From: Escherichia coli
GTDB lineage: Bacteria; Pseudomonadota; Gammaproteobacteria; Enterobacterales; Enterobacteriaceae
Length of the DNA: 64,000 nt
Strand: one strand, 5' to 3'
Assembly (NCBI RefSeq): GCF_003018115.1
Contig: NZ_CP027457.1
Each line of letters opens with the position of its first letter. Positions within the stretch are counted from its first letter, which is position 1. A program made the position numbers and the translations under genes. The notes under the pieces are model-generated. The model saw only the letters and a program-made list of their open reading frames with translations, searched no databases and was not told where the DNA came from. Shown piece by piece: positions 3 through 38,692 of this stretch.

Positions 3-272
3 GTGGAGAAAAACATCAAAGTGCCACTGACTGAACCCCAGAAAGCGGGGATCGCGTCATTCTGCCCGTATAACATTGGCCCCGGTAAGTGTTTCCCGTC
101 GACGTTTTATAAACGAATTAATGCAGGCGATCGCCGGGGTGCATGCGAGGCGATTCGCTGGTGGATTAAAGACGGTGGCAGAGACTGCCGTATCCGCTCA
201 AATAACTGTTATGGTCAGGTATCCCGTCGTGACCAGGAGAGCGCGCTGGCGTGCTGGGGTATCGACAGATAA
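3..272 (+). CDS. Phage endolysin (lysozyme-type), C-terminal part; 5' end outside window
   Basis: ORF runs to window edge; C-terminal motifs resemble prophage lysozymes; lies upstream of Rz/Rz1. Confidence 0.6.
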   Translation: MEKNIKVPLTEPQKAGIASFCPYNIGPGKCFPSTFYKRINAGDRRGACEAIRWWIKDGGRDCRIRSNNCYGQVSRRDQESALACWGIDR

Positions 273-546
273 GCAGAATATTTTGCTGAAAAATGACGTT
301 GGCCAACGCGGACGGATAACACGAAATCCTGCGAACTGGCAAAATGTAAGTGAATAACGTCAGGAACATTATTTCACGCAGAGGCACCGTAATGGTGCCT
401 TTGTCATTTCTGCGCTTCGCACAAGCGTAAATAAACCAAAGAACCTTTCAGGATGAGCCCTGGTGGATAACCGGCAGTGGTCTGGTTAACCCTCTTTGGG
501 CTGGTTATTCCTGTGCGCAGGGTTCATCACTAAAAGGAAATAACCG

Positions 547-1119
547 ATGAATATGATGACCGTGCCGTTTCACGGCGATTCTCTTTATGTGGTTAACCAT
601 AACGGCGAACCATACGTTCCCATGAAACCTGTCGTTGAGGGAATGGGTATGACCTGGCAGTCTCAACACCGCAAATTGATGGAGAGATTTAAGACCTGCA
701 TCATCGAAATGATGATTCAGCTCCCCGGTGATACTCAGCGTCGTCTGGTTATCTGTCTTGCTTTACGTAAACTTGCAGGTTGGCTGCAAACCATCAACCC
801 AAATAAAGTTAAACCTGAAATCCGCGACAGAGTCATTCAGTATCAGGAAGAGTGCGACGATGTTCTCTATGAATACTGGACGAAGGGTTTTGTCGTTAAT
901 CCTCGTCAAATGAGCGTGATGGAAGAACTCAATCAGGCTTGCGCTGACATGCAACGGGATAAAAACATTGTCAGTGTGTTTGCTACCGGGCTGAATGAGT
1001 GGAAACAGGTTAAAGCTGCGCATGTATCAAAAATCCGCACATTGATAAACGAAGCGAATCTGCTGATTGATTTTGTCCTAGCTGATACAGGCAAAGGGAA
1101 AATAACAAAGGCGGATTGA
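547..1119 (+). CDS. Phage antirepressor-like regulatory protein (accessory gene between endolysin and spanins)
   Basis: 190-aa ORF; N-terminal region resembles phage antirepressor N-terminal domains; family assignment from recall only. Confidence 0.5.
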   Translation: MNMMTVPFHGDSLYVVNHNGEPYVPMKPVVEGMGMTWQSQHRKLMERFKTCIIEMMIQLPGDTQRRLVICLALRKLAGWLQTINPNKVKPEIRDRVIQYQEECDDVLYEYWTKGFVVNPRQMSVMEELNQACADMQRDKNIVSVFATGLNEWKQVKAAHVSKIRTLINEANLLIDFVLADTGKGKITKAD

Positions 1120-1133
1120 TGGAGAGGTGGCTA

Positions 1134-1268
1134 ATGATATCGGATAAAATCATAACGCTGACAAAGACCATTTGTGTGATTGTCGGCGTTTCATTTTCGC
1201 TAATGATGGTTGCTCTTTTTCTTTCCATAGCCTGGATGGCGTTGAGTTCGGTAGGGCTGGTGGGGTGA
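1134..1268 (+). CDS. Hypothetical small hydrophobic protein (about 44 aa)
   Basis: Short ORF read from sequence with GGAGAGG Shine-Dalgarno-like motif just upstream; single hydrophobic stretch; stop overlaps Rz GTG start; below ORF-track size cut-off. Confidence 0.25.
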
Positions 1269-1708
1269 GCATAAACCGAATTATTTCCGCGTTTACCGTT
1301 ATTCTGCTGGTGGTCTGTGGTGTGCTTAGTCTGGGGCTGAATCATTACCGTGATAACGCCATCGCCTACAAAGAGCAGCGCGATAAAGCCACATCCATCA
1401 TCGATGATATGCAGAAGCGGCAACGTGATGTAGCAGAACTTGACGCCAGATACACAAAGGAGCTTGCTGATGCTAATGCGACTATCGAAAGTCTCCGTGC
1501 TGATGTTTCTGCTGGTCGTAAGCGCCTGCAAGTCGCCGCCACCTGTGCAAAGTCAACGACCGGAGCCAGCAGCATGGGCGATGGAGAAAGCCCAGGACTT
1601 ACAGCAGATGCTGAACTCAATTATTACCGTCTCAGAAGTGGAATCGACAAGATAACCGCGCAGGTTAACTACCTGCAGGAATACATCAGGACGCAATGCC
1701 TGAAATAA
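1265..1708 (+). CDS. Rz: Spanin inner-membrane subunit Rz (GTG start)
   Basis: Internal start of track ORF 1172..1708; product closely resembles lambda Rz (NHYRDNA..YK.QRDK and AGRKRL motifs). Confidence 0.85.
1470..1655 (+). CDS. Rz1: Spanin outer-membrane lipoprotein Rz1, embedded in +1 frame of Rz
   Basis: 61-aa nested ORF with lipobox-like LVVSAC and proline-rich segment, as in lambda Rz1. Confidence 0.7.
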
Positions 1709-1738
1709 TTTTTTTGCAAATCACAAAGTCCATTTAAT

Positions 1739-1765
1739 GAGCCCCGCGATGCGGGGCTTTTTTAT
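1739..1765 (+). terminator. Rho-independent terminator after Rz
   Basis: GC-rich hairpin (gccccgcg..gcggggc) followed by T run. Confidence 0.6.
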
Positions 1766-1910
1766 GTACGCAGTAAACGCGCTTCACACGCGCGACTTAT
1801 GAACACAGAACCTTTCAGGATGACCCTTGAGGATGCCGGTTTGGTGATCGGTGCCTTTCTGTGGGCCGGAATCCTGTGTGACAAGGTTCATCACTAAAAG
1901 GTGTGCACTG

Positions 1911-2453
1911 ATGAATTATCCAACTATCGTTAACGGCATCGATTTTCGAGATCTGATTTTTGTGGCAAACAACGATCCGGTTACAGATTCTTTTATGGTG
2001 GCAAAAGCATTTGGAAAGCTGCCGAAGAACGTAGTTCGTGACATTGAACGAACCATAGAAGCTTGCCCTCCTGGGTTTGATACAAAGCTCAACTTTGAGC
2101 TTTGCTATAAAAACAATGAGTTACAGAATGGTAAGCCGCAAAAATTCTACCGTCTCCGCAAGGATGGGTTGATGCTTTTGGTTATGTCCTACACCAAAAA
2201 AGAAGCAATGCGTATCAAAATTGCTTACATCAACGCATTTAACTGGATGTACGCCATGCTTCAGGTTGGTCATCGTCAATTTGAAGAAGAGAGAAATGCC
2301 GTAATGCTGGAGTACATGAAAGAGAAGGATGTTGCCAGCATGTCAGGTCGCCTGCTAAATCGCTGGGGCAAAATTAAGAAGCCACAGTTGCTGGCTAGAA
2401 TTGAACGCCTTGAACAGCACGGGCAAACCGTAATCCCCGGACTCATCAATTAA
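1911..2453 (+). CDS. Phage regulatory protein, Rha-like
   Basis: Internal Met of track ORF 1851..2453; N-terminal region resembles Rha-family phage regulatory proteins (recall). Confidence 0.55.
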   Translation: MNYPTIVNGIDFRDLIFVANNDPVTDSFMVAKAFGKLPKNVVRDIERTIEACPPGFDTKLNFELCYKNNELQNGKPQKFYRLRKDGLMLLVMSYTKKEAMRIKIAYINAFNWMYAMLQVGHRQFEEERNAVMLEYMKEKDVASMSGRLLNRWGKIKKPQLLARIERLEQHGQTVIPGLIN

Positions 2454-2934
2454 CGGCAGTACCGCGAAACAACCCAAGCCAGTAAGTGGGGAAATAACAC
2501 TGGCAGCCACTGAAAGATGAACCTCCAGCCTTATGGCAAAAAAGATTCTTTGTGGTGGCGGACTGATGGAAAGACATCGGTTATTGCAGAGGCCATTCAA
2601 TGAGTGGTCTCGACAATGGCTTATACCCTACACGGGATAACTTAATTGATATCCTTTTTAACGGATAAAGGCATTTCAGCCTGACATAGCCATGCGCCGT
2701 ATCGTCGCCGTATTCCTGCATTAACAGAGACCGCAGCCCGACAGGGAGACTCCTCTGCGAGAGTGTGCGGGGATAATCAAAAACGATACACACCGGGGTT
2801 TACCGCGTTAACGGAGCGCGGCGTTGTCCCCTCATGGTCGCTGGTCCGGTGCGATGGTGGAAGAAACTGGATTTTGTTGCAACTGATAACCATTATCATT
2901 TTACGGGTCCTTTCCGGCGATCCAGGCCGTTACG

Positions 2935-2946
2935 GGGCGGCGACCT
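2935..2946 (+). other. cosN cohesive-end sequence GGGCGGCGACCT
   Basis: Exact lambda 12-nt cohesive-end sequence read about 175 bp upstream of Nu1 start. Confidence 0.75.
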
Positions 2947-3121
2947 CGCGGGTTTTCGCTATTTATGAAAATTTTCCGGGGAAAATCATGTCGGTACTTC
3001 TCGAACATAACTATTTGTTTTTTCTAATATCGAATCCGTAAAGGTCCGACATGAAAACGCCTGAAAAAGTCATTTTCGGGCACTTTCATGTCGGACCCTG
3101 TATTTGTTGTGAGACTGTTTC

Positions 3122-3641
3122 ATGAAGGTTAATAAAAAGAAACTTGCCGAAATTTTCAACGTGGATCCGCGAACGATTGAACGCTGGCAGTCTCAGGGGC
3201 TCCCTTGCGTCTCCGGAGGTGGTAAGGGCGTTGAATCTGTATTTGATACCGCCACGGCAATTCAGTGGTATGCGCAGAGGGAAGCTGATATCGAAAATGA
3301 AAAACTCCGTAAAGAGGTTGAGGATTACAGGGCTGCCAGCGAGGCAGATCTCCAGCCTGGGACTATTGAGTACGAACGCCATCGACTTACGCGTGCGCAG
3401 GCTGACGCCCAGGAGCTGAAGAATGCCAGAGACTCCGCAGAAGTGGTGGAAACCGCATTCTGTACTTTCGTGCTGTCACGGATCGCAGGTGAAATTGCCA
3501 GTATTCTTGACGGGATCCCTCTCTCAGTACAGCGGCGTTTTCCGGAACTGGAAAACCGACATGTTGATTTCCTGAAACGGGATATTATCAAAGCCATGAA
3601 CAAAGCAGCCGCGCTGGATGAACTGATACCGGGGTTGCTGA

Positions 3642-18438: not shown

Positions 18439-18678
18439 AAATAAAAAAATCCCGCAGAGTTAGCGGAGCTGCGGGAGAGAACGATGAAGATTAACGTTAT
18501 GGAGTTATTTTTCAGGCATCAAAAATGTAACGCAGCGTCATTATTGCGGCTACAGGCAATTGCCGGAAATGTGAAGAGTTTCAGAAATTTTATTCCGTCA
18601 TGACACAGGCACCCTCCGGGGTGCCTGTTGTTTTCTGGCATAAACAGATTCAGACATCAGACAGGAGAGGGGGACAGA

Positions 18679-21600
18679 GTGGGTAAAGGGGGCGGCAAGG
18701 GGCACACACCGCGTGAGGCGAAGGACAATCTCAAATCCACGCAGATGATGAGCGTGATTGATGCCATTGGTGAGGGACCGGTGGAAGGTCCGGTGAAGGG
18801 ACTGCAGAGTATTCTGGTGAACAAAACCCCGCTGACGGACACGGACGGTAATCCCGTGATACACGGTGTGACCGCCGTCTGGCGTGCCGGGGAGCAGGAG
18901 CAGACACCACCTGAAGGCTTTGAGTCCTCCGGGGCGGAAACCGCACTGGGCGTGGAGGTGTCGAAGGCAAAGCCGGTGACGCGCACCATCACGTCAGCGA
19001 ACATTGACCGTCTGCGGGTCACCTTCGGGGTGCAGTCACTGGTGGAGACCACCTCAAAGGGTGACCGTAATCCCTCTTCTGTCCGGCTGCTGATTCAGCT
19101 TGAGCGTAATGGTAACTGGGTGACGGAGAAGGATGTCACCATTAACGGCAAGACCACCTCGCAGTACCTGACGTCGGTGATTCTGAATAATCTCCCTGAG
19201 CGCCCCTTTAACATCCGGGTGGTCAGGGTGACGGCGGACAGTACCACGGACCAGCTGCAGAACAGAACGCTGTGGTCGTCATACACCGAAATCATCGATG
19301 TGAAACAGTGCTACCCGAACACGGCCATTGTGGGGCTGCAGGTGGATGCGGAGCAGTTCGGTGGCCAGCAGATGGTGGTGAACTACCATATCCGCGGCCG
19401 CATCATTCAGGTGCCGTCAAACTATGACCCGGAAAAACGCACCTACAGCGGTATCTGGGACGGGAGTCTGAAACCGGCATACAGCAATAACCCGGCCTGG
19501 TGCCTGTGGGACATGCTGACTCACCCGCGCTACGGGATGGGAAAACGCCTGGGGGCCGCGGATGTGGACAAGTGGGCGCTGTATGCCATCGGGCAGTACT
19601 GCGACCAGACGGTCCCGGATGGTTTCGGGGGCACAGAGCCGCGGATGACCTTTAATGCGTACCTGTCACAGCAGCGTAAGGTGTGGGATGTCCTGGGGGA
19701 TTTCTGCTCGGCGATGCGCTGTATGCCGGTATGGAACGGTCAGACGCTGACGTTCGTTCAGGACCGTCCGTCGGATGTGGTGTGGCCGTACACGAACAGC
19801 GATGTGGTGGTGGATGATAACGGCGTGGGGTTCCGCTACAGCTTCAGTGCCCTGAAGGACCGGCACACGGCGGTGGAGGTGAATTACACCGACCCGCAGA
19901 ACGGCTGGCAGACTTCCACGGAACTGGTGGAAGACCCGGATGCCATCCTGCGCTACGGGCGCAACCTGCTGAAGATGGATGCGTTCGGCTGTACCAGCCG
20001 CGGTCAGGCCCACCGTGCCGGACTGTGGGTGATAAAGACAGAACTGCTGGAAACGCAGACGGTGGATTTCACGCTCGGGTCTCAGGGGCTGCGGCACACA
20101 CCCGGTGACATCATTGAAATCTGTGATAACGACTATGCCGGGACCCTGACCGGCGGACGCATCCTGTCCATCGATGCCGCCAGCCGCACACTGACGCTGG
20201 ACCGTGAGGTGACACTGCCGGAAGCAGGTACATCGACGGTGAACCTGATTAACGGCCGTGGTAAGCCGGTGCGCGTGGACATCACTGCACACCCCGCCCC
20301 TGACCGGATACAGGTCAGCGTCCTGCCTGATGGCGTGGCGACATACGGTGTGTGGGGACTCTCCCTGTCGTCACTGCGTCGTCGCCTGTTCCGCTGTGTT
20401 TCCATCCGGGAAAACACGGACGGCACCTTTGCCATCACGGCGGTGCAGCACGTACCGGAAAAAGAAGCCATTGTGGATAACGGGGCCCGCTTTGAGCCGA
20501 TGTCCGGCTCACTGAACAGCGTCATCCCGCCGGCAGTGCAGCACCTCACGGTGGAGGTGAGTGCCTCAGACGGCCAGTATCTGGCGCTGGCGAAATGGGA
20601 CACGCCGCGGGTGGTGAAGGGCGTGCGTTTCAGTCTGCGCCTGACCAGCGGAAACGGTGAAAACAGCCGCCTGGTGACCAGCGCCATCACGGCGGACACG
20701 GAGCACCGTTTCAGTGGCCTGCCTCTGGGGGAATACACCCTGACGGTCAGGGCGATAAACAGCTATGGCCAGCAGGGCGAACCTGCCACCACCACATTCC
20801 GGATTAATGCACCGGCGGCACCGGCCAGCATTGAACTGACGCCGGGCTATTTTCAGATAACGGTGGTCCCGCATCCTGCGGTGTATGACCCGACGGTACA
20901 GTATGAATTCTGGTTCTCAGAAAAACGCATCACGGACACGGCACAGGTGGAAACCTCAGCCCGTTATCTGGGTACCGACAGCCAGTGGAGCGTCTCCGGC
21001 CCGCACATTAAGCCGGGGAAGGATTTCTGGTTTTATGTGCGCAGCGTCAACCTGGTGGGGAAATCTGCGTTTGTGGAGGCCAGCGGGCAGGCCAGCAATG
21101 ATGGTGAAGGGTATCTGGAAATTTTCCGTGGGCTGATAGATGAGGCGCTGCTGGGGAAGGCACTGAAAGAGCGTATTGATGCGTCAGCCCTGCGTACTGA
21201 GGTCACGCAACTGGAAGAAGACATCCGCCAGCGGCTGGAGACGGATGTTGCGGAAGTGACCCGAAAAATAGGGGAGGCGGAAAACAGCCTCACGCAGCTG
21301 GTTGCGAAAAAGAATGAGGACCAGACGCTGGCCATCGCGCAGGTGAGTCAGCAGGTGGACCGGGTGAGCAGTGAAATCACACAGACAGTCAGCCAGAGCA
21401 CGGAGGAAAACGCCAGGCAGATAGCGCAGGTCCGCCAGTACGTGGATGACAAAGGGAGTGAAATCACCTCGACCACGGATAAAAAGCTGGAAGACCAGAG
21501 CGCGACCATACAGCAGATACAGCAGGTCCAGTCAGACACGAATGATGAGCTGGCAGCGCTGTACATGCTGAAGGTGCAGAAAACGAAAAACGGCATTCCG

Positions 21601-22374
21601 TATGTTGCCGGTATTGGTGCGGGGATTGAGGATGCTGATGGCCGGACGCTGAGCAATATTCTGCTGCAGGCGGACCGTATCGCGATGATTACCCCGGAGA
21701 ACGGCAACACCACGCCGCTGTTTGTGGCGCAGGGGAACCAGCTGTTCATGAACGACGTGTTCCTGAAGCGACTGTTTGCGGTGAGTATCACGTCATCCGG
21801 CAATCCCCCGACGTTCTCCCTGACGCCGGAGGGCAGGCTGACAGCCCGCAATGCGGATATCAGCGGAGCTGTTACAGCGAATTCTGGCACGCTCAATAAT
21901 GTCACCATTAACGAGAACTGTGTCATCAGAGGGAAACTGTCTGCGAACCAGATTGAAGGCGATCTGGTGAAGACGGTGGGGAAAGCCTTTCCCCGGAATA
22001 ACAGTTATGCCCGTGGCACGATAACCGTCACGGTTTACGATGACCAGGGCTTCGACCGGCAGATTATCATTCCACCGGTGCTGTTTCGTGGGACGAAACA
22101 CCAGAACGTCAACAGCCCGAATCAGCAGTCGTACTGGTATTCAACCTGTAAGCTGCAGGTGCTGAAAAACGGGGCAGAGATTTTTCATGAACCGGCAACG
22201 GATGTCAGCCGGGTGTTCTCATCGGTGATTGACATGCCAGCAGGACGGGGTCATGTCACCCTGACGTTTAATGTGTCGTCTACCGGCGCGAACAACTGGA
22301 CACCGACGACGTACATCAGTGATTTACTGGTTGTGGTGATGAAAAAATCCACGGCGGGAATCAGTATCAGCTGA
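18679..22374 (+). CDS. J: Central tail fibre / host specificity protein J (GTG start), about 1231 aa
   Basis: In-frame GTG with GGAGAGG motif upstream inside track ORF 18628..22374; N-terminal three-quarters match lambda gpJ; distal region diverges. Confidence 0.9.
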
Positions 22375-23217: not shown

Positions 23218-25068
23218 ATGACGGTTAAAATTTCTGGTGTGCTGAAGGACGGGGCCGGTAAGCCGGTACCGGGATGCACGATAGAGCTGAAAGCGCGACG
23301 CACAACGGAGACGGTGATTGTCACCACGGTGGCGTATGGTCAGCCGGGGGAAACCGGCAGTTACAGTATGGATGTTGAGCCGGGTCTGTACCGGGTGACG
23401 CTGAACACGGAAGGGTACGCGCCGTCATATGTGGGTGACATTCTGGTGAAGGCGGAGTCTGCACCGGGAACGCTGAATAAATTTCTGATGGACCAGGAGG
23501 ACGCACAGTATTACCCGAAAGCCCTTGCAGAGCTGGAAGCGGTGGCCGCGGAAATCCTGAAACGTGCGGAAGCGTCAGCGGCGAGTGCAGAGGAAGCGAA
23601 GAAACGGGCAGAGAATGCGCGGGGACCGAAGGGGGATAAGGGAGACACCGGGCCACAGGGTATTCCCGGGCCAAAAGGCGATACCGGCGAGCGGGGGCCA
23701 AAGGGTGAGCGTGGTGAGAGGGGGCCGCAGGGGCTTCAGGGTGTGAAAGGTGAACGGGGAGAGAAGGGCGAAAAAGGCGAGCCGGGAGGACCGGATGCGA
23801 CGACGGCACAGAAGGGAATTGTGCAGTTAAGCAGCGCAACGGACAGTGATGATGAAACGAAGGCAGCCACCCCGAAAGCGGTGAAAGCGGCAATGGACAA
23901 AGCGGACGGATGCCTGGAGAAAGCGAAAAACGGTGACGATATCCCGGATAAGGTGCAGTTTCTGAACACTGTGGGAGCAGCCAGAGTATACGGGTGGGAC
24001 ATTCATACGGGGGCCGGTGAATGGACCACGAGCGAGTTTGTCGCCTGGCTGAAAGCCAAAGGGGCATTTGACCAGCCTTACTGGATGATGAAGGCATCAC
24101 TGCATGCGGGATTCAATAAGGTCATCACGGATGTCGGACCGGGAAAACTTAATCTGGGTGGCTGTGTCATTGAGGTGATGGGGAAGTATGAGGCAGCCAT
24201 AGTCCGGGTCACCATTGGCGAATACGGTGCAACGGGGTTTATTAATGGCACGGTCTGTACCTGTACGGTTTACGGCGACACACAGTATTTCCACTGGCGG
24301 GTGGATTACAGCACAAAAAACAAACCGGATACGGTCAGCCAGCGGGATGCCAGCACGACGCAGAAAGGTGTGGTGCAGTTAAGCAGTGATACTGGCAGTA
24401 ATGACGAAACAAAGGCAGCCACGCCGAAGGCCGTGAAGGCGGCAATGGATGTGGCAAATGAAGCGAAAACAAAGGCAGAAGAGGCTGCAGCAGGAGGTGG
24501 TGTTCCCGGTCCGAAAGGAGATAAAGGGGACACGGGGCCGGCAGGTCCGGCTGGGCCGGGGGGCCCTCAGGGACCAAAGGGGGATACTGGCGCTCCCGGG
24601 GCAAAAGGTGAGAAAGGAGCCACCGGCGCAACCGGGCCACAGGGAGCAAAAGGGGATAAAGGTGATCCCGGCCCTCAGGGACCAAAGGGGGATACTGGCG
24701 CTCCTGGGGCAAAAGGTGAGAAAGGAGCCACCGGCGCAACCGGGCCACAGGGACCAAAAGGGGATAAAGGTGATCCCGGTCCCCGGGGGGCAACAGGCCC
24801 ACAGGGACCAGCTGGCTCACCGGCAGGTGGTTTGCATGCTGTTGGGGCATTTGTCTTTGCTCAGGCCAGTATAAGTAACAGTGAAAAATATGCCGCAGGT
24901 GCCGTGCTTGCGGGAAGTAAACTGAGAGAATGTAGCATTCAACTGGGCTCTCAGAAAGCAGCCACATTAACCGGTAATACACTGCCAGGAACATGGCGGG
25001 TCTGTAGTCCACTTCAGGTCAGTTCAATATATCCTTACTGTGTGGGGCTGTTTCAGCGTATATCGTGA
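23218..25068 (+). CDS. stf: Side tail fibre protein with collagen-like Gly-X-Y domains (Stf-like)
   Basis: N-terminus resembles lambda Stf; two copies of a conserved fibre motif (KG-I/V-VQLSS...[10 protein letters not shown]); two collagen-like G-X-Y blocks. Confidence 0.8.
24568..24783 (+). repeat. Near-perfect tandem duplication (2 x 108 bp, 12 G-X-Y triplets each) inside the tail fibre gene
   Basis: Two adjacent 108-bp units differing at a handful of positions, in frame. Confidence 0.75.
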
Positions 25069-25335: not shown

Positions 25336-25665
25336 TCATATTTCCGGAAGTCCGTATTTTGCCCGGGCGCGGTTGCATGCTTCATTCGCGATGCCATTTT
25401 CTCCGGACATTGCAAATTCCCGGCATGTGGACGGACGGTTTTTGTAAACAGAGCAATATGCGTTTTCACCCGGAGTTCCCGCCAGAGCGACACATCGGGG
25501 ATTTTTCTGACTGGTGCCGCGCATACAGCGATGAAAGGGGGATATTTGCTCAGTGAGACTGACCGGAACCTTTCCGCCAGCATCGTCAGCTTCTGCCCAG
25601 TAAAAAGAGACGCGGAAAAATGCACAACAGGCACCACACGTCATGCATGGATTCGGATTGTTCAT
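25336..25665 (-). CDS. YkgJ/UPF0153-like protein with C-x2-C-x2-CC motif (putative metal-binding), prophage cargo
   Basis: 109-aa ORF with CMTCGACC motif and further conserved Cys; opposite strand to phage late genes; hairpin plus T run on minus strand just downstream (about 25185..25205). Confidence 0.55.
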
Positions 25666-25830
25666 TTTTATACTATTTGTTGTTTTTTCAGCGATCAGTT
25701 CAAAGGACGCTGAAAAAAAACATTCTCCAAAATTAAATTATAACTATTTGATTTTATGGATAGAGGCATGCTTTTTACGCAAAAGTAAAAAGCATGCCAA
25801 ATTTGCTATTAACTCTTTGAATATTCAGCA

Positions 25831-26694
25831 CTAATCATCTATTTCGGTTGCCTTCTTATTCAGCAGACGAGAAGCGCGCCAGTAAACCAGCAACATCAGG
25901 CCCATTACGATAGTCAGCGTAATGCTGGTGGCTGCACCAAACGGCCAGTCACGAATATTGAGGAACTGTACCTTGATGACGTTACCGATCAGCAGGTTTT
26001 TCGCACCGCCCATCAGGTCGGACACATAGAACAGGCCCATCGCTGGCAGCATCACCAGCAGACATCCGGCAATAATCCCCGGCATCGTCAGTGGAATAAT
26101 GATGCGGATAAAAGTCTGTAACTTGCTGGCACCGAGATCGCGCGCCGCCTCAAGCAACGGCTTATCCAGTTTTTCGATACTGGAGTACAGCGGCATCACC
26201 ATAAACGGTAGCAGAATGTAAACCAGACCGATAATCACCGCACTGGGCGTGAACATGATACGGATTGGTGTGTCGATAACGCCCAGCCAGAGCAAAAACT
26301 CGTTGAGATAGCCTTTGGTGCTGAGGAAAATTTTCAGCCCGTAGATGCGAATCAGTGAGTTGGTCCAGAAGGGAACAATCAGCAGAAACAGCAGCAGCGG
26401 ACGCACCTTGTGTGGCAGCTTCGCCAGAAACCAGGCAAACGGGTAGCCCAGCACCAGGCAGGCGAGAGTGGCGATCAGCGCCATATTCAGCGAGTGCAAT
26501 AGCACTTCAAAATAGAGCGGATCGAGCAGACGCGTGTAGTTATCCAGCGTAAAGACCATTTTGACGAAACTGGCGTCGTCGCGGGTCAAAAAGCTGGTGC
26601 CAATGATCATCAGGTTGGGCAGAAAGACAAACAACACAAGCCAACCGACAATAGTGACAATCACTACATTCTGGAACTTACTTGTGTTCTTCAT
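25831..26694 (-). CDS. potB: Spermidine/putrescine ABC transporter permease PotB
   Basis: 287-aa product matches E. coli PotB except the last few residues (ends KKATEIDD here). Confidence 0.93.
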
Positions 26695-27814
26695 CAGCCA
26701 GTACGACCTCCCAGCTTTCTACCCAATTAATGGCCATTTTTTGGTCGAGAGAGTGGTCAAAGTCAGGATCGTCTTCATTAAAGAATTCGCTGACCATCAC
26801 CATCTTGCCATTTTCCAGTTCAACAACCGACTCCAGCGTCATGCCTTTGTAGTTACGCTCGCGAACGTAACCAATCAGCCCTTCAGCGTGGTTGTCGTCG
26901 TTAATCTCTTCAACACGTAAGTCTTCCGGGCGCAGCAGAACATGCAGTTTTTGCCCCGGTTCAACGGCGAAGTTAACGTAGATATTACATTCGCGGCCTT
27001 CAACGTTGGCGCGTACGCGCTGCTCGTCGAGACGTTCGATGACAGTGGCGTTAAACATATTGATTTCGCCAATGAACCCGGCAACAAACAGGTTTTTCGG
27101 CTCTTCGTAGATTTCACGCGGCGTGCCGTCTTGCTCAATGCGACCATCGCGCATCACCACAATCCTGTCTGACATGGTGAGTGCTTCTTCCTGATCGTGA
27201 GTCACGAAGACGAATGTAATGCCAAGCTTACGCTGTAACGCTTTCAGCTCGTTCTGCATTTGCTTACGCAGTTTGTAATCCAGCGCTGAGAGCGACTCAT
27301 CCAGCAACAACAGACGAGGCTTGTTAACCACCGCGCGAGCAATGGCGACGCGTTGCTGTTGACCACCAGAGAGCTGATGCGGTTTGCGTTGAGCGAAGGT
27401 TTCCAGCTGCACCATCCGCAGGGCTTCCATCACGCGGGGCGTAATTTCAGCAGCGGGGGTTTTTTGCATGCGCAACCCAAAGGCCACATTTTCGAACACG
27501 GTCATGTGGGGGAAAAGTGCGTAGCTTTGGAAAACAGTGTTCACATAGCGGTTTTCCGCCGGAACGTGGGTGATGTCCTCGTTATCCAACATGATGCGTC
27601 CGGAATCAACAGTTTCCAGACCTGCAATCAGGCGAAGAACGGTTGTTTTACCGCAGCCAGAAGGGCCAAGCAGCGTGAGGAACTCGCCATTGTTGATAGT
27701 CAGATCCAGCTGGGGAATGACCTCTTTACCATCAAAGCATTTGCGAATTCCCGCCAATTGCACCAGCGGTGAAAGCGAACTCGGTTGTTTATTCAATTTT
27801 TTACTCTGTCCCAT
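26678..27814 (-). CDS. potA: Spermidine/putrescine ABC transporter ATPase PotA
   Basis: 378-aa product matches E. coli PotA; Walker A and ABC signature present. Confidence 0.97.
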
Positions 27815-29438: not shown

Positions 29439-30560
29439 TTACCCTTCGAAGAACCAATACCCGCTATTGACCAGCGCCGCGAGCATCGCGAGGAATGACG
29501 GATCTTCCAGCGCATCGCCAAAATTCTCCGCAGTCAGCGCAATGTTGCTGGCGAGTGCATCCAGTGCCGGACGGTGCGGGGAATCGATCTTCTCACCATT
29601 GGCATACACGTCGTCGCCAATGCGCAATACGCGCAGACCACCCAGGCGCACCAGCACATCACCTTGTTTCAGCGCATCGTAGATTTCATCCGGCTGATAA
29701 GGCGGCTCTGGCGGCGCGATATCCAGTTCATGACGTGACTGAGATATAAACTCCCCAAACCATTGCTTAAAGTGTTCCGGCTGGTTAATCAATTCGAGCA
29801 TCATCTCACGCAGTTTATCCATCTCTTGCGGCAGAACATCCGCAGGATGAGCGCGAGGTGGAACATCAGGATCGCTGTAGTAGTTGCCGCCCAGTTCACG
29901 TTGCAGCACATAATCGGCAAATCCACTAATCAATTCCCGCGTATTTGGCGCGCGAAAACCCACGGAATAGTTCATCGCATTTTCCAGAGCGTAGCCTTCA
30001 TGCGGGAATCCTGGCGGAATATAAAGAATATCACCAGGCTCCAGCTCTTCATCGATGATGGCTTCGAACGGCTCGACCTGTAACAGATCTGGATGTGGGC
30101 AGTGCTGTTTCATTTGCAGTTTTTCGCCCACTCGCCAGCGACGACGTCCGGTACCCTGAATGATAAACACGTCGTACTGATCGAGATGCGGGCCGACGCC
30201 GCCGCCAGGTACAGAAAAAGAGATCATCAGATCATCAATACGCCAGTCCGGTAGTTCACGGAACGGTCGCATCAGCGCGGCGGTCGGCTCATGCCAGTGG
30301 TTCACTGCTTGCACTAACAATGACCAGTTAGTTTCACCGAGATGATCGTAGCTTTCGAACGGACCGTGGCTGACCTGCCATTTGCCATCCTGGTGACTGA
30401 CCAGTCGACTGTCGACTTCGCTTTCCATCGCCAGACCCGCCAACTCGTCTGGAGAGATCGGGTCAATAAAATTATTAAAGCCGCGTTTTAACACCACCGG
30501 GCGTTTCTGCCAGTGACGTTCAAGAAAATCGGGCCAGTTAAGAGTGAGTTGGTATTCCAT
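29439..30560 (-). CDS. ycfD: Ribosomal protein L16 arginine hydroxylase (cupin/JmjC-like) YcfD/RoxA
   Basis: Product matches E. coli YcfD from internal Met MEYQLTLNW. Confidence 0.9.
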   Translation of the reverse strand: MEYQLTLNWPDFLERHWQKRPVVLKRGFNNFIDPISPDELAGLAMESEVDSRLVSHQDGKWQVSHGPFESYDHLGETNWSLLVQAVNHWHEPTAALMRPFRELPDWRIDDLMISFSVPGGGVGPHLDQYDVFIIQGTGRRRWRVGEKLQMKQHCPHPDLLQVEPFEAIIDEELEPGDILYIPPGFPHEGYALENAMNYSVGFRAPNTRELISGFADYVLQRELGGNYYSDPDVPPRAHPADVLPQEMDKLREMMLELINQPEHFKQWFGEFISQSRHELDIAPPEPPYQPDEIYDALKQGDVLVRLGGLRVLRIGDDVYANGEKIDSPHRPALDALASNIALTAENFGDALEDPSFLAMLAALVNSGYWFFEG

Positions 30561-30635
30561 GTTAAGCATCCACAGGCTGGTATCTGCAACCGATTATAAC
30601 GGATGCTTAACGTAATGCGTGAAGTATGGACATAT

Positions 30636-32096
30636 TTATTCATCTTTCGGCGTAGAATGCTGGCGACCAAAAATCACCTCCATCCGCGCACCGCCAAGCA
30701 TGCTCTCTCCGGCGACGATTTTACCCTCATATTGCTCGGTGATTTCGCGGGCTACCGCCAGCCCCACACCTTGCCCAGGGCGTAAAGTATCAACCCGTTG
30801 ACCACGGTCGAAAATGACCTCTCGCTTGCTTAATGGAATACCGGGTCCATCATCCTCGACCACAATATAGAGATGCTCGTCGGTTTGCCTTGCAGAAATT
30901 TCGACAAACTCGAGGCAATATTTACAGGCATTATCCAGCACATTGCCCATCACCTCGACAAAATCGTTCTGCTCACCGACAAAGCTGATCTCTGGCGAAA
31001 TATCGAGAGAGATATTGACCCCTTTGCGTTGATACACTTTGTTCAGCGCCGAGGTGAGATTGTCCAGCAGTGGGGCGACCGGATGCAGCTCGCGGCTGAG
31101 CAATGTCCCGCCGCGCATACTGGCACGATGCAGGTAGTAGCCAATTTGCTGTGAAATGCGGCTGATTTGCTCCAGCATTACCGGTTCAGCATCACTGACG
31201 CTCATCTTTTCACTACGCAGAGAACGCAGCGTACTTTGCAGCACCGCCAGTGGCGTTTTCAGACTATGGGTCAGGTCGGTGAGCGTTGTACGATATTTGT
31301 CGTAACGTTCGCGTTCACTTTTTAACAATCGGTTCAGGTTTCGTACCAGACTGGTCAGTTCTCGCGTTGTGGCTGGATTGAGCAATTCGCGGTTATGTTC
31401 TTCCAGTTCGCGGACTTCTTTTGCCAGGGCTTCGATGGGGCGTAAACTCCACCAGGCGGCGACCCACAGCAGCGGGATCACTAACAGCAGATTGGCTGAG
31501 AGCACATAGATAAACCAGCTCCAGACCATATAGGAACTTTTTAGCTCCACCGGAATGGTATCCACCACCACAATGGTTAACTTTGGCATCCGCGATGTTG
31601 CCGGGTAGACGTTTACCGCCACCGAGTGGGTCATCTCCGCGTCGTCATCATCTTCCCGCACTTCCTGCAACTGTTGCTGTATCGAATGATCTCCACTCAG
31701 CAAGAGGCTGGTATCGTTAACATCCGCTTCAATTTCATGAAAACCATTCGATTTCAGCCAGTCAGGCTGGATCATCTTCATCAGCCAGGGCACGTCACGT
31801 TGCGCCCATAAAAGCTGCCCGTTCTCATCATAAATTAGCGTCATGGTGGGGCTTTGCTTGTCGATATTTTCGGGTAACTCGACATGCAACTTATTGTTTT
31901 CCCACTTCGCAAGGGTATAGAACAGATTGCTCTCGCCACGTAACAGCCGAAACGTAGTTTTATCGAAACTGACGCTATAACCGATCAGCGCGACCATTCC
32001 GTAGGCAAGCGAAAGCACCAGTACTACCGCTGCCGTTGCTAACAGAAAACGTACCCGCAGCGAGAGCGGGAAAAAAAGACGCAGTAATTTTTTCAT
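30636..32096 (-). CDS. phoQ: Sensor histidine kinase PhoQ
   Basis: 486-aa product matches E. coli PhoQ. Confidence 0.97.
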
Positions 32097-37441: not shown

Positions 37442-38692
37442 ATGGAAAGTAAAGTAGTTGTTCCGGCACAAGGCAAGAAGATCACCCTGCAAAACGGCAA
37501 ACTCAACGTTCCTGAAAATCCGATTATCCCTTACATTGAAGGTGATGGAATCGGTGTAGATGTAACCCCAGCCATGCTGAAAGTGGTCGACGCTGCAGTC
37601 GAGAAAGCCTATAAAGGCGAGCGTAAAATCTCCTGGATGGAAATTTACACCGGTGAAAAATCCACACAGGTTTATGGTCAGGACGTCTGGCTGCCTGCTG
37701 AAACTCTTGATCTGATTCGTGAATATCGCGTTGCCATTAAAGGTCCGCTGACCACTCCTGTTGGTGGCGGTATTCGCTCTCTGAACGTTGCCCTGCGCCA
37801 GGAACTGGATCTCTACATCTGCCTGCGTCCGGTACGTTACTATCAGGGCACTCCAAGCCCGGTTAAACACCCTGAACTGACCGATATGGTTATCTTCCGT
37901 GAAAACTCGGAAGACATTTATGCAGGTATCGAATGGAAAGCTGACTCTGCCGACGCTGAGAAAGTGATTAAATTCCTGCGTGAAGAGATGGGCGTGAAGA
38001 AAATTCGCTTCCCGGAACATTGCGGTATCGGTATTAAGCCGTGTTCTGAAGAAGGCACCAAACGTCTGGTTCGTGCAGCGATCGAATACGCAATTGCCAA
38101 CGATCGTGACTCTGTGACCCTGGTGCACAAAGGCAACATCATGAAGTTCACCGAAGGCGCGTTTAAAGACTGGGGCTACCAGCTGGCGCGTGAAGAATTT
38201 GGCGGTGAACTGATCGACGGCGGCCCGTGGCTGAAAGTTAAAAACCCGAATACCGGCAAAGAGATCGTCATTAAAGACGTGATTGCTGATGCATTCCTGC
38301 AACAGATCCTGCTGCGTCCGGCTGAATATGATGTTATCGCCTGTATGAACCTGAACGGTGACTACATTTCTGACGCTCTGGCAGCGCAGGTTGGCGGTAT
38401 CGGTATCGCCCCTGGAGCAAACATCGGTGACGAATGCGCCCTGTTTGAAGCCACCCACGGTACTGCGCCGAAATATGCCGGTCAGGACAAAGTAAACCCA
38501 GGCTCTATTATTCTCTCTGCAGAGATGATGCTGCGCCACATGGGTTGGACTGAAGCCGCAGACCTGATTGTTAAAGGTATGGAAGGCGCGATCAACGCGA
38601 AGACTGTAACCTATGACTTCGAACGTCTGATGGAAGGCGCTAAACTGCTGAAATGTTCAGAGTTTGGTGAAGCGATCATCGAAAACATGTAA
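37442..38692 (+). CDS. icd: Isocitrate dehydrogenase (NADP)
   Basis: 416-aa product matches E. coli Icd. Confidence 0.97.

Follow-up and report, generated by a model that had tools for sequence, protein, structure and literature searches.

The stretch of Escherichia coli DNA analysed here (the window, 64,000 nucleotides) carries a potB gene with an altered C-terminus, a strong inverted repeat just beyond its stop codon and, further left, phage genes in place of potC. This raises the question of whether the end of potB marks the border of a prophage, which sequence served as the attachment core, and what the inverted repeat does next to it. A preliminary description of the locus had taken E. 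coli PotB to end in LLNKKVELE and had proposed on this basis that the final codons of potB are of phage origin, in the way known from e14 at icd.

Attachment site at the 3' end of potB

The segment is very probably the attR of a lambdoid prophage that was integrated by a tyrosine recombinase of the lambda Int family into a 12-bp core, CCTTCTTATTCA, within potB. The features that define this junction are as follows.

1-25850, plus strand: right-hand part of a lambdoid prophage (ORF list; collinearity with the 99-3311 prophage)
25831-25850, minus strand: phage-supplied end of potB, comprising most of the ATEIDD codons and the TAG stop at 25831-25833 (translations, attB alignment)
25851-25862, strand not applicable: att core CCTTCTTATTCA, the sole sequence common to attR, attB and attL
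25831-26694, minus strand: potB, 287 aa, host sequence down to the core, then a phage-encoded tail

To locate the border, a 701-nt junction query was compared with 5,426 complete E. coli genomes. The potB side was matched in 5,425 of them, most of the matches beginning only at 25851, which is also where similarity to the 3,800 prophage-free genomes ends. An alignment with the potB-potC region of a non-lysogen, a check that the preliminary description had suggested, was identical from CCTTCTTATTCAGCA rightward and unrelated leftward, diverging to the left of 25851, with potC directly adjacent in attB. The right boundary of the prophage therefore lies at 25850/25851, with host sequence extending to the right of the core and phage sequence to the left.

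The other prophage end was seen in a relative. Strain 99-3311 has the window-type junction at 99.6% identity and carries a 46-kb Stx2c prophage between potB and potC, the far end of which reads excisionase, integrase, potC, potD, with the integrase and excisionase directly before potC. The 99-3311 integrase (372 aa) aligns with residues 26-371 of lambda Int (E = 6.6e-54 to PDB 1z1b), and the match extends into the arm-binding N-terminal region. When the window attR, the attB of the K-12-like strain KMS2005 and the 99-3311 attL were aligned three ways, CCTTCTTATTCA was the only shared block. In the potB sense it comprises the Asn-Lys-Lys codons together with the final two bases of the Leu codon before them and the initial base of the codon after them, so that the core sits in the potB codons L-N-K-K, 19 nt upstream of the overlapping potC start. 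The matching core that had been looked for at the opposite end of the prophage was thus found at the 99-3311 attL, in a related genome instead of the window. In the 64-kb window the core occurs as a single copy (25851-25862), with no second copy found, and attL, int and potC consequently lie beyond the window start. The closest complete genome among the 5,426 covers the window to 83% at 97.6% identity; since the exact genome of the window is absent from this collection, the core was defined via 99-3311, whose junction region is 99.6% identical.

It is next to inconceivable that the altered PotB C-terminus is ordinary allelic variation and the hairpin a native intergenic element: the lack of a second att site in the window itself is the sole weak point of the junction and nothing else was found in favour of this explanation, whereas potB and potC overlap directly in prophage-free genomes with no intergenic region between them, tail genes adjoin potB in the window and potC is missing, the relative 99-3311 shows the identical junction type and has int and potC at a distance of 46 kb, and hardly any overlap exists between the junction classes in the 5,426 genomes. 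A prophage-free potB with the same end and the same hairpin, named beforehand as the observation that would speak against a junction, was not found, and phage or cargo genes flank the P arm in the loci inspected.

The translations bear out both the PotB end given in the preliminary description and its proposal. PotB of KMS2005 (locus L001) does end in LLNKKVELE, followed by the stop codon that overlaps the potC start in prophage-free genomes. After the core the host reads GTG GAA CTC GAA TGA (VELE and stop), and the phage arm reads GCA ACC GAA ATA GAT GAT TAG (ATEIDD and stop). The six last potB codons and the stop thus come from phage DNA, as the translations and the break in similarity to attB at 25851 indicate. 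The replacement tail is in frame, exchanging VELE-stop for ATEIDD-stop in the manner of e14 at icd, and this in-frame substitute for the displaced end leaves potB an intact ORF. The junction accounts for potB here being 2 aa longer with a different tail. Three tail variants occur, ATEIDD, ATEIDN and VSELDD, and the differences between them are synonymous or conservative. RefSeq likewise annotates an 864-nt potB in the lysogens 99-3311, 2011C_4037, strain 131 and ATCC 25922.

The phages e14 and 21 integrate into the 3' end of icd with phage-supplied replacement codons. The logic at potB is the same: the crossover falls in the last codons, the phage arm supplies an in-frame end and the gene stays intact. 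The two sites differ in extent, only six codons and the stop being replaced at potB and about 50 at icd, and in context, the potB insertion splitting an operon (potAB from potCD), which has no parallel at icd.

Prophage genes, site occupancy and the pot operon

To the right of the junction the window follows the host gene order. The upstream neighbour of potB is potA (26678-27814, minus strand, ORF list), and pepT, roxA, phoQ and phoP lie beyond it among the window ORFs. To the left, no potC was found in the window, and phage genes stand there instead, collinear with the annotated 99-3311 prophage from the terminase to gpJ, Lom, tail fibre, YkgJ and potB. The genes nearest to the junction are listed below (coordinates from the ORF list).

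18628-22374: J-type tail tip protein, 1,248 aa
22404-23066: lom, a Lom-family gene
23218-25068: collagen-repeat tail fibre gene
25336-25665, minus strand: phage cargo gene of the ykgJ-like cysteine-cluster type, 109 aa, with no further gene between it and the att site

The tail fibre gene contains long collagen-like Gly-X-Y repeats in two blocks, and these repeats give rise to long spurious ORFs on its reverse strand. The equivalent of the ykgJ-like gene in 99-3311 is annotated as 'YkgJ family cysteine cluster protein'; the window protein had no match in NCBIfam. Which cargo lies immediately inside attR varies among prophages at potB. The position holds the ykgJ-like gene in the window and in 99-3311, a SAM-dependent methyltransferase gene in ATCC 25922 (L002 1792-2460), genes for a DUF1076 protein and a bfpT-regulated chaperone in 2011C_4037 (L006 34-1457), and espK in strain 131 (L007 1-1329).

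To assess how often the site is used, junction classes were counted at 80% coverage among the 5,426 complete E. coli genomes.

Intact potB-potC junction: 3,800 of 5,426 genomes
Window-type attR: 675 of 5,426 genomes
ATCC 25922-type attR: 969 of 5,426 genomes

The three counts add up to 5,444 against 5,426 genomes, so the classes are close to mutually exclusive. The empty site (attB) is therefore present in related genomes (3,800/5,426), and the window-type and ATCC 25922-type attR together correspond to a site occupied in about 30% of complete E. coli genomes.

The locus itself has been described. The literature treats potB as a standard site of prophages, with one report on O157:H7 clade 8 (PMC9997748) and another on O145:H28 (PMC7067040), and potC is listed among Stx-phage insertion sites in a passage of PMC8065619 that cites Steyert et al. 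In the portions of these three papers that were consulted, the 12-bp core, the replaced codons and the P-arm hairpin were not found. The prophage of the window shares both the locus and the lambdoid kind with the known potB/potC prophages and Stx phages, its closest relative being the 99-3311 Stx2c prophage (99.6% at the junction), but none of the 5,426 complete genomes contains an identical one. The junction belongs to a known kind at an already known, heavily used phage site. Its value is one of annotation, in that the right prophage boundary is fixed, and the current view of phage integration is unchanged. Since the site is about 30% occupied and hosts Stx1a and Stx2c phages as well as effector-carrying prophages, the map of core and arms is useful for prophage typing; it is also useful for the design of attB/attP PCR assays.

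Integration splits potABCD, and the potC ribosome-binding region is kept at attL (99-3311, L004 25969-26136). In 99-3311, potC and potD lie about 46 kb from the potA promoter, behind int and xis. No promoter-like site facing potC was detected in the 99-3311 attL and P' arm, and no terminator-like site was detected between int and potC on the potC strand. Given no promoter facing potC and no terminator after int, potCD expression would depend on read-through from the int side, a reliance that the sequence of 99-3311 suggests may exist.

Arms of the attachment site and the hairpin

The phage DNA between the ykgJ-like gene and the core forms the P arm of the attachment site. It contains two candidate protein-binding sites.

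25724-25732, plus strand: candidate arm-type Int site TCTCCAAAA, P arm (motif count)
25741-25753, minus strand: exact match to the IHF consensus WATCAANNNNTTR, P arm (by consensus match only)

In the P' arm, TCTCCAAAA recurs as three tandem copies in the same orientation at +48 to +80, one of them with one mismatch. The two arms together contain four copies where 0.19 would be expected, and none of 2,000 shuffles reached four. Arm-type sites are to be expected given the homology of the 99-3311 integrase to lambda Int, and we infer from the motif that the TCTCCAAAA copies are candidate arm-type Int binding sites. The attP core reads CCTTC-TTATTCA-TAAGG, in which CCTTC and TAAGG form a short inverted repeat around TTATTCA; by analogy with lambda, TTATTCA is a candidate 7-bp overlap region. 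The layout would then be lambda-like, with one arm-type site and IHF on the P side, three arm-type sites on P' and a 7-bp overlap. The likeness to the lambda attP and attR thus comprises a homologous Int, three tandem candidate P' arm-type sites and one P site, the IHF consensus in P, and int and xis adjoining P' in the potB-site prophage of 99-3311. Core and arm motifs nevertheless differ in sequence from those of lambda, and the P arm here has a single clear arm-type site, itself a candidate.

A second P-arm family, the ATCC 25922 type, is used by phages with a 97%-identical Int and a 100%-identical Xis. The blocks common to both families are TTCTCCAAAA, TTGATTTT, TTGAATAT and the last ~20 bp, and nothing else. 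Of these, TTCTCCAAAA in the arm-type region and TTGATTTT in the IHF region are invariant between the families, and the last ~20 bp encode VSELDD and the stop in the ATCC 25922-type arm. The P arm of Stx1a phage records is about 87% identical to that of the window.

Contiguous P-core-P' sequences were found in four IMG/VR contigs (L009, L010, L012 and L013), all with the sister, ATCC 25922-type P arm; these joints could be attP or tandem-prophage junctions. For the window-type P arm, junction with P' was seen with just 8 nt of the arm, at a contig end (L011), and no contiguous window-type attP was present among the virion-derived genomes of the phage collection. The records vB_EcoS-640R1 and vB_EcoS-813R8 were considered as attP and rejected, as their similarity is confined to the core, P' and int; the former is a prophage record with host potC and potD flanks, hence attL. 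The Stx1a phage record LC744186 lacks the core in its first 1.8 kb, and a further IMG/VR match (L008) was discarded as a chance match to unrelated sequence.

Between the IHF consensus and the core lies the inverted repeat.

25765-25798, strand not applicable: P-arm inverted repeat, two perfectly matching 14-nt arms around a 6-nt loop, 53-86 bp from the core

Its arms, GGCATGCTTTTTAC (25765-25778) and GTAAAAAGCATGCC (25785-25798), are separated by 6 nt, and its near end is 33 nt past the potB stop (25831-25833). The preliminary description had placed a perfect repeat of 12-bp arms at about 25760 to 25800; the perfection holds, and the arms are 14 nt long. It had also considered that the hairpin might be part of the att core, which is ruled out by the 53 bp between them: at 53-86 bp from the core, the hairpin is an element of the phage P arm, outside the core.

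As RNA, the hairpin folds with -21.8 kcal/mol on the minus strand and -23.0 kcal/mol on the plus strand. Shuffled sequences average about -8 (z of -6.2 and -6.4 relative to dinucleotide shuffles, with 0 of 200 shuffles folding as well), so that the hairpin exceeds chance. The stem contains 6 G-C pairs, as a stem of an intrinsic terminator should. A U-tract 3' of the stem is absent on both strands, the flanks being UCUAUCCA (minus) and AAAUUUGC (plus). A terminator scan left the hairpin unflagged and flagged four other sites nearby, Rfam at permissive thresholds returned only sub-threshold noise for it, and a promoter scan of the interval from potB to the ykgJ-like gene detected nothing promoter-like. 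The arm sequence has no other copy in the window.

The window-type P-arm family contains three hairpin sequence variants, all of which fold stably (z of -4 to -6.6) even though they carry 6 substitutions in 34 nt, mostly in the loop. Four of the six loop positions differ among variants, and one loop change adds a closing pair. In the stem, the variant of Stx1a phages and 2011C_4037 has two adjacent uncompensated mismatches and that of strain 131 has one; the outer GGCATGC/GCATGCC blocks are invariant in every variant of the family. At the same position the ATCC 25922-type P arm is unrelated in sequence and forms no more than a 6-bp hairpin (z of -1.7 to -2.9), again lacking a U-tract.

The geometry of attP relative to int suggests a role at the RNA level. 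Our preference, a tentative one that could well prove wrong, is that the hairpin serves as a 3' stem-loop that stabilises or limits transcripts running into the P arm; the missing U-tract argues against a canonical terminator. It would act on the potAB mRNA in the lysogen and on int mRNA crossing attP in the free phage, in whose circular genome int transcription would run through P', core and P and then into the hairpin.

It is somewhat less likely that the hairpin has no selected function and was merely inherited in one P-arm lineage. Its restriction to a single lineage, the uncompensated stem mismatches of its variants and the lack of any family or consensus match would agree with such an origin. 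A perfect 14-bp stem is rare, however, with three comparable repeats in 64 kb, and the clustering of substitutions in the loop with stability kept in all variants (z of -4 to -6.6) also counts against it.

The preliminary description had suggested a phage-supplied terminator, here one that ends the potAB transcript and insulates the prophage from host read-through. The strong stem on the potB-sense strand (-21.8 kcal/mol), 33 nt after the new stop, is in keeping with this suggestion, and a barrier would be useful because the next gene in the potB sense is phage cargo, after which transcription would run antisense to the tail genes. We nevertheless consider a terminator unlikely, because the potB-sense 3' flank of the stem is UCUAUCCAUAAAAUC and not a U-tract, neither strand offers one, the terminator scan misses the hairpin though it flags four neighbours, and the sister P arm has merely a 6-bp hairpin at this position, likewise without a U-tract.

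An improbable reading is that of a retroregulator like lambda sib, by which int transcripts crossing attP would gain the hairpin and be directed to processing or decay, the prophage state separating the hairpin from int. Retroregulation by sib is itself established, reportedly by Guarneros et al. in 1982. The geometry fits: int read through P', core and P meets the hairpin 53-86 nt past the core, and the hairpin lies on the P-arm side of attP in the int-sense strand, downstream of int, and is separated from int in the prophage (99-3311 attL, window attR). The lambda tI/sib hairpin, also strong, lies on the same side and in the same strand. The window hairpin is nearer to the core, however (53-86 against ~160-200 nt), and has neither the U6 tract nor the longer, extended duplex of the lambda element. 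Its 14-bp stem, with no flanking extension, is short for an RNase III site, as substrates of this enzyme typically span some two helical turns, and phages that share Int and Xis but have the other P arm lack a comparable stem.

More doubtful still is a role of the palindrome as DNA, either as a site for a dimeric protein or as an architectural or spacer element of the intasome. Each arm ends in a self-palindromic octamer, GGCATGCC, with the octamer centres 26 bp apart, and the outer GGCATGC/GCATGCC blocks do not vary within the window family. The P arm of lambda carries Xis and Fis sites, and by analogy the palindrome occupies the corresponding part. A required Int or Xis site is ruled out, since the sister P arm is unrelated there: Xis is identical and Int 97% identical despite the different P arm, so the palindrome is not required for recombination. 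No candidate binding protein for it was found.

Besides the hairpin, the 64-kb window contains two short-loop inverted repeats whose arms measure 14 nt or more, which makes three in all. One, at 41224-41261, pairs 14 nt perfectly around a 10-nt loop and lies between the genes for an MlrA-like regulator (40443-41174, minus strand) and an EAL-domain protein (41379-42668, minus strand). The other, at 44206-44259, is a 24-nt pair with 96% complementarity, about 140 bp upstream of a c-di-GMP phosphodiesterase gene (44401-45966).

P-arm sequences in other prophages and neighbouring loci

In IMG/VR, the window-type P arm with its hairpin, the potB-tail codons and the whole or part of the core also occurs inside other prophages. 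These copies accompany espK or DUF1076/chaperone cargo and abut the 3' parts of broken tail-fibre genes instead of potB or P'. Three types of junction were distinguished. In L019, L024 and L025 the core is followed by AAGATGGAGTTATCG, with the 3' end of ssrA about 800 bp further; in L031 and L033, CCTTCTT is followed by CAGTAGATCTGG, from the C-terminal part of tfa; and in L021 and L023, CCTTCTTAT is followed by CCGTCAGGCG, from the C-terminal part of stf. In all three the break falls in or at the core. One of the targets has an uninterrupted counterpart in phage 2851, GGTTTATTGCTCAGAAGATGG, which is only loosely core-like.

The tail-fibre joints could stem from Int-mediated exchange at secondary sites that moves effector cargo, or they could be old illegitimate joints. 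A broader idea, which we rate as rather improbable, joins these copies to the hairpin. It holds that the hairpin is a sib-like RNA element without a U-tract, whose targets would be int mRNA in the free phage and potAB mRNA in the lysogen, jointly with Int-catalysed core exchange that moves a module of cargo, P arm and core between lambdoid prophages into tail-fibre genes. If true, this would constitute a site-specific shuffling route for type III effector genes carried as cargo, espK and nleG-like ones among them.

Elsewhere in the window, no large e14-type prophage follows icd (37442-38692): the 1.7 kb after it contain no ORF of at least 150 aa. The ORFs examined from 40443 on are chromosomal, encoding an MlrA-like regulator, EAL-domain proteins, an autotransporter, MinD and MinC. 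Nearer to the junction, roxA (29439-30569) is followed directly by phoQ (30636-32096) in the window, with no island between them. In 99-3311, an island of about 10 kb lies between these two genes (L003 25210-35647). It encodes an integrase, Icd-like genes, a RepA-family helicase, PerC, a major capsid protein, a head decoration protein and a small terminase, and looks like a capsid-forming, phage-inducible chromosomal island.
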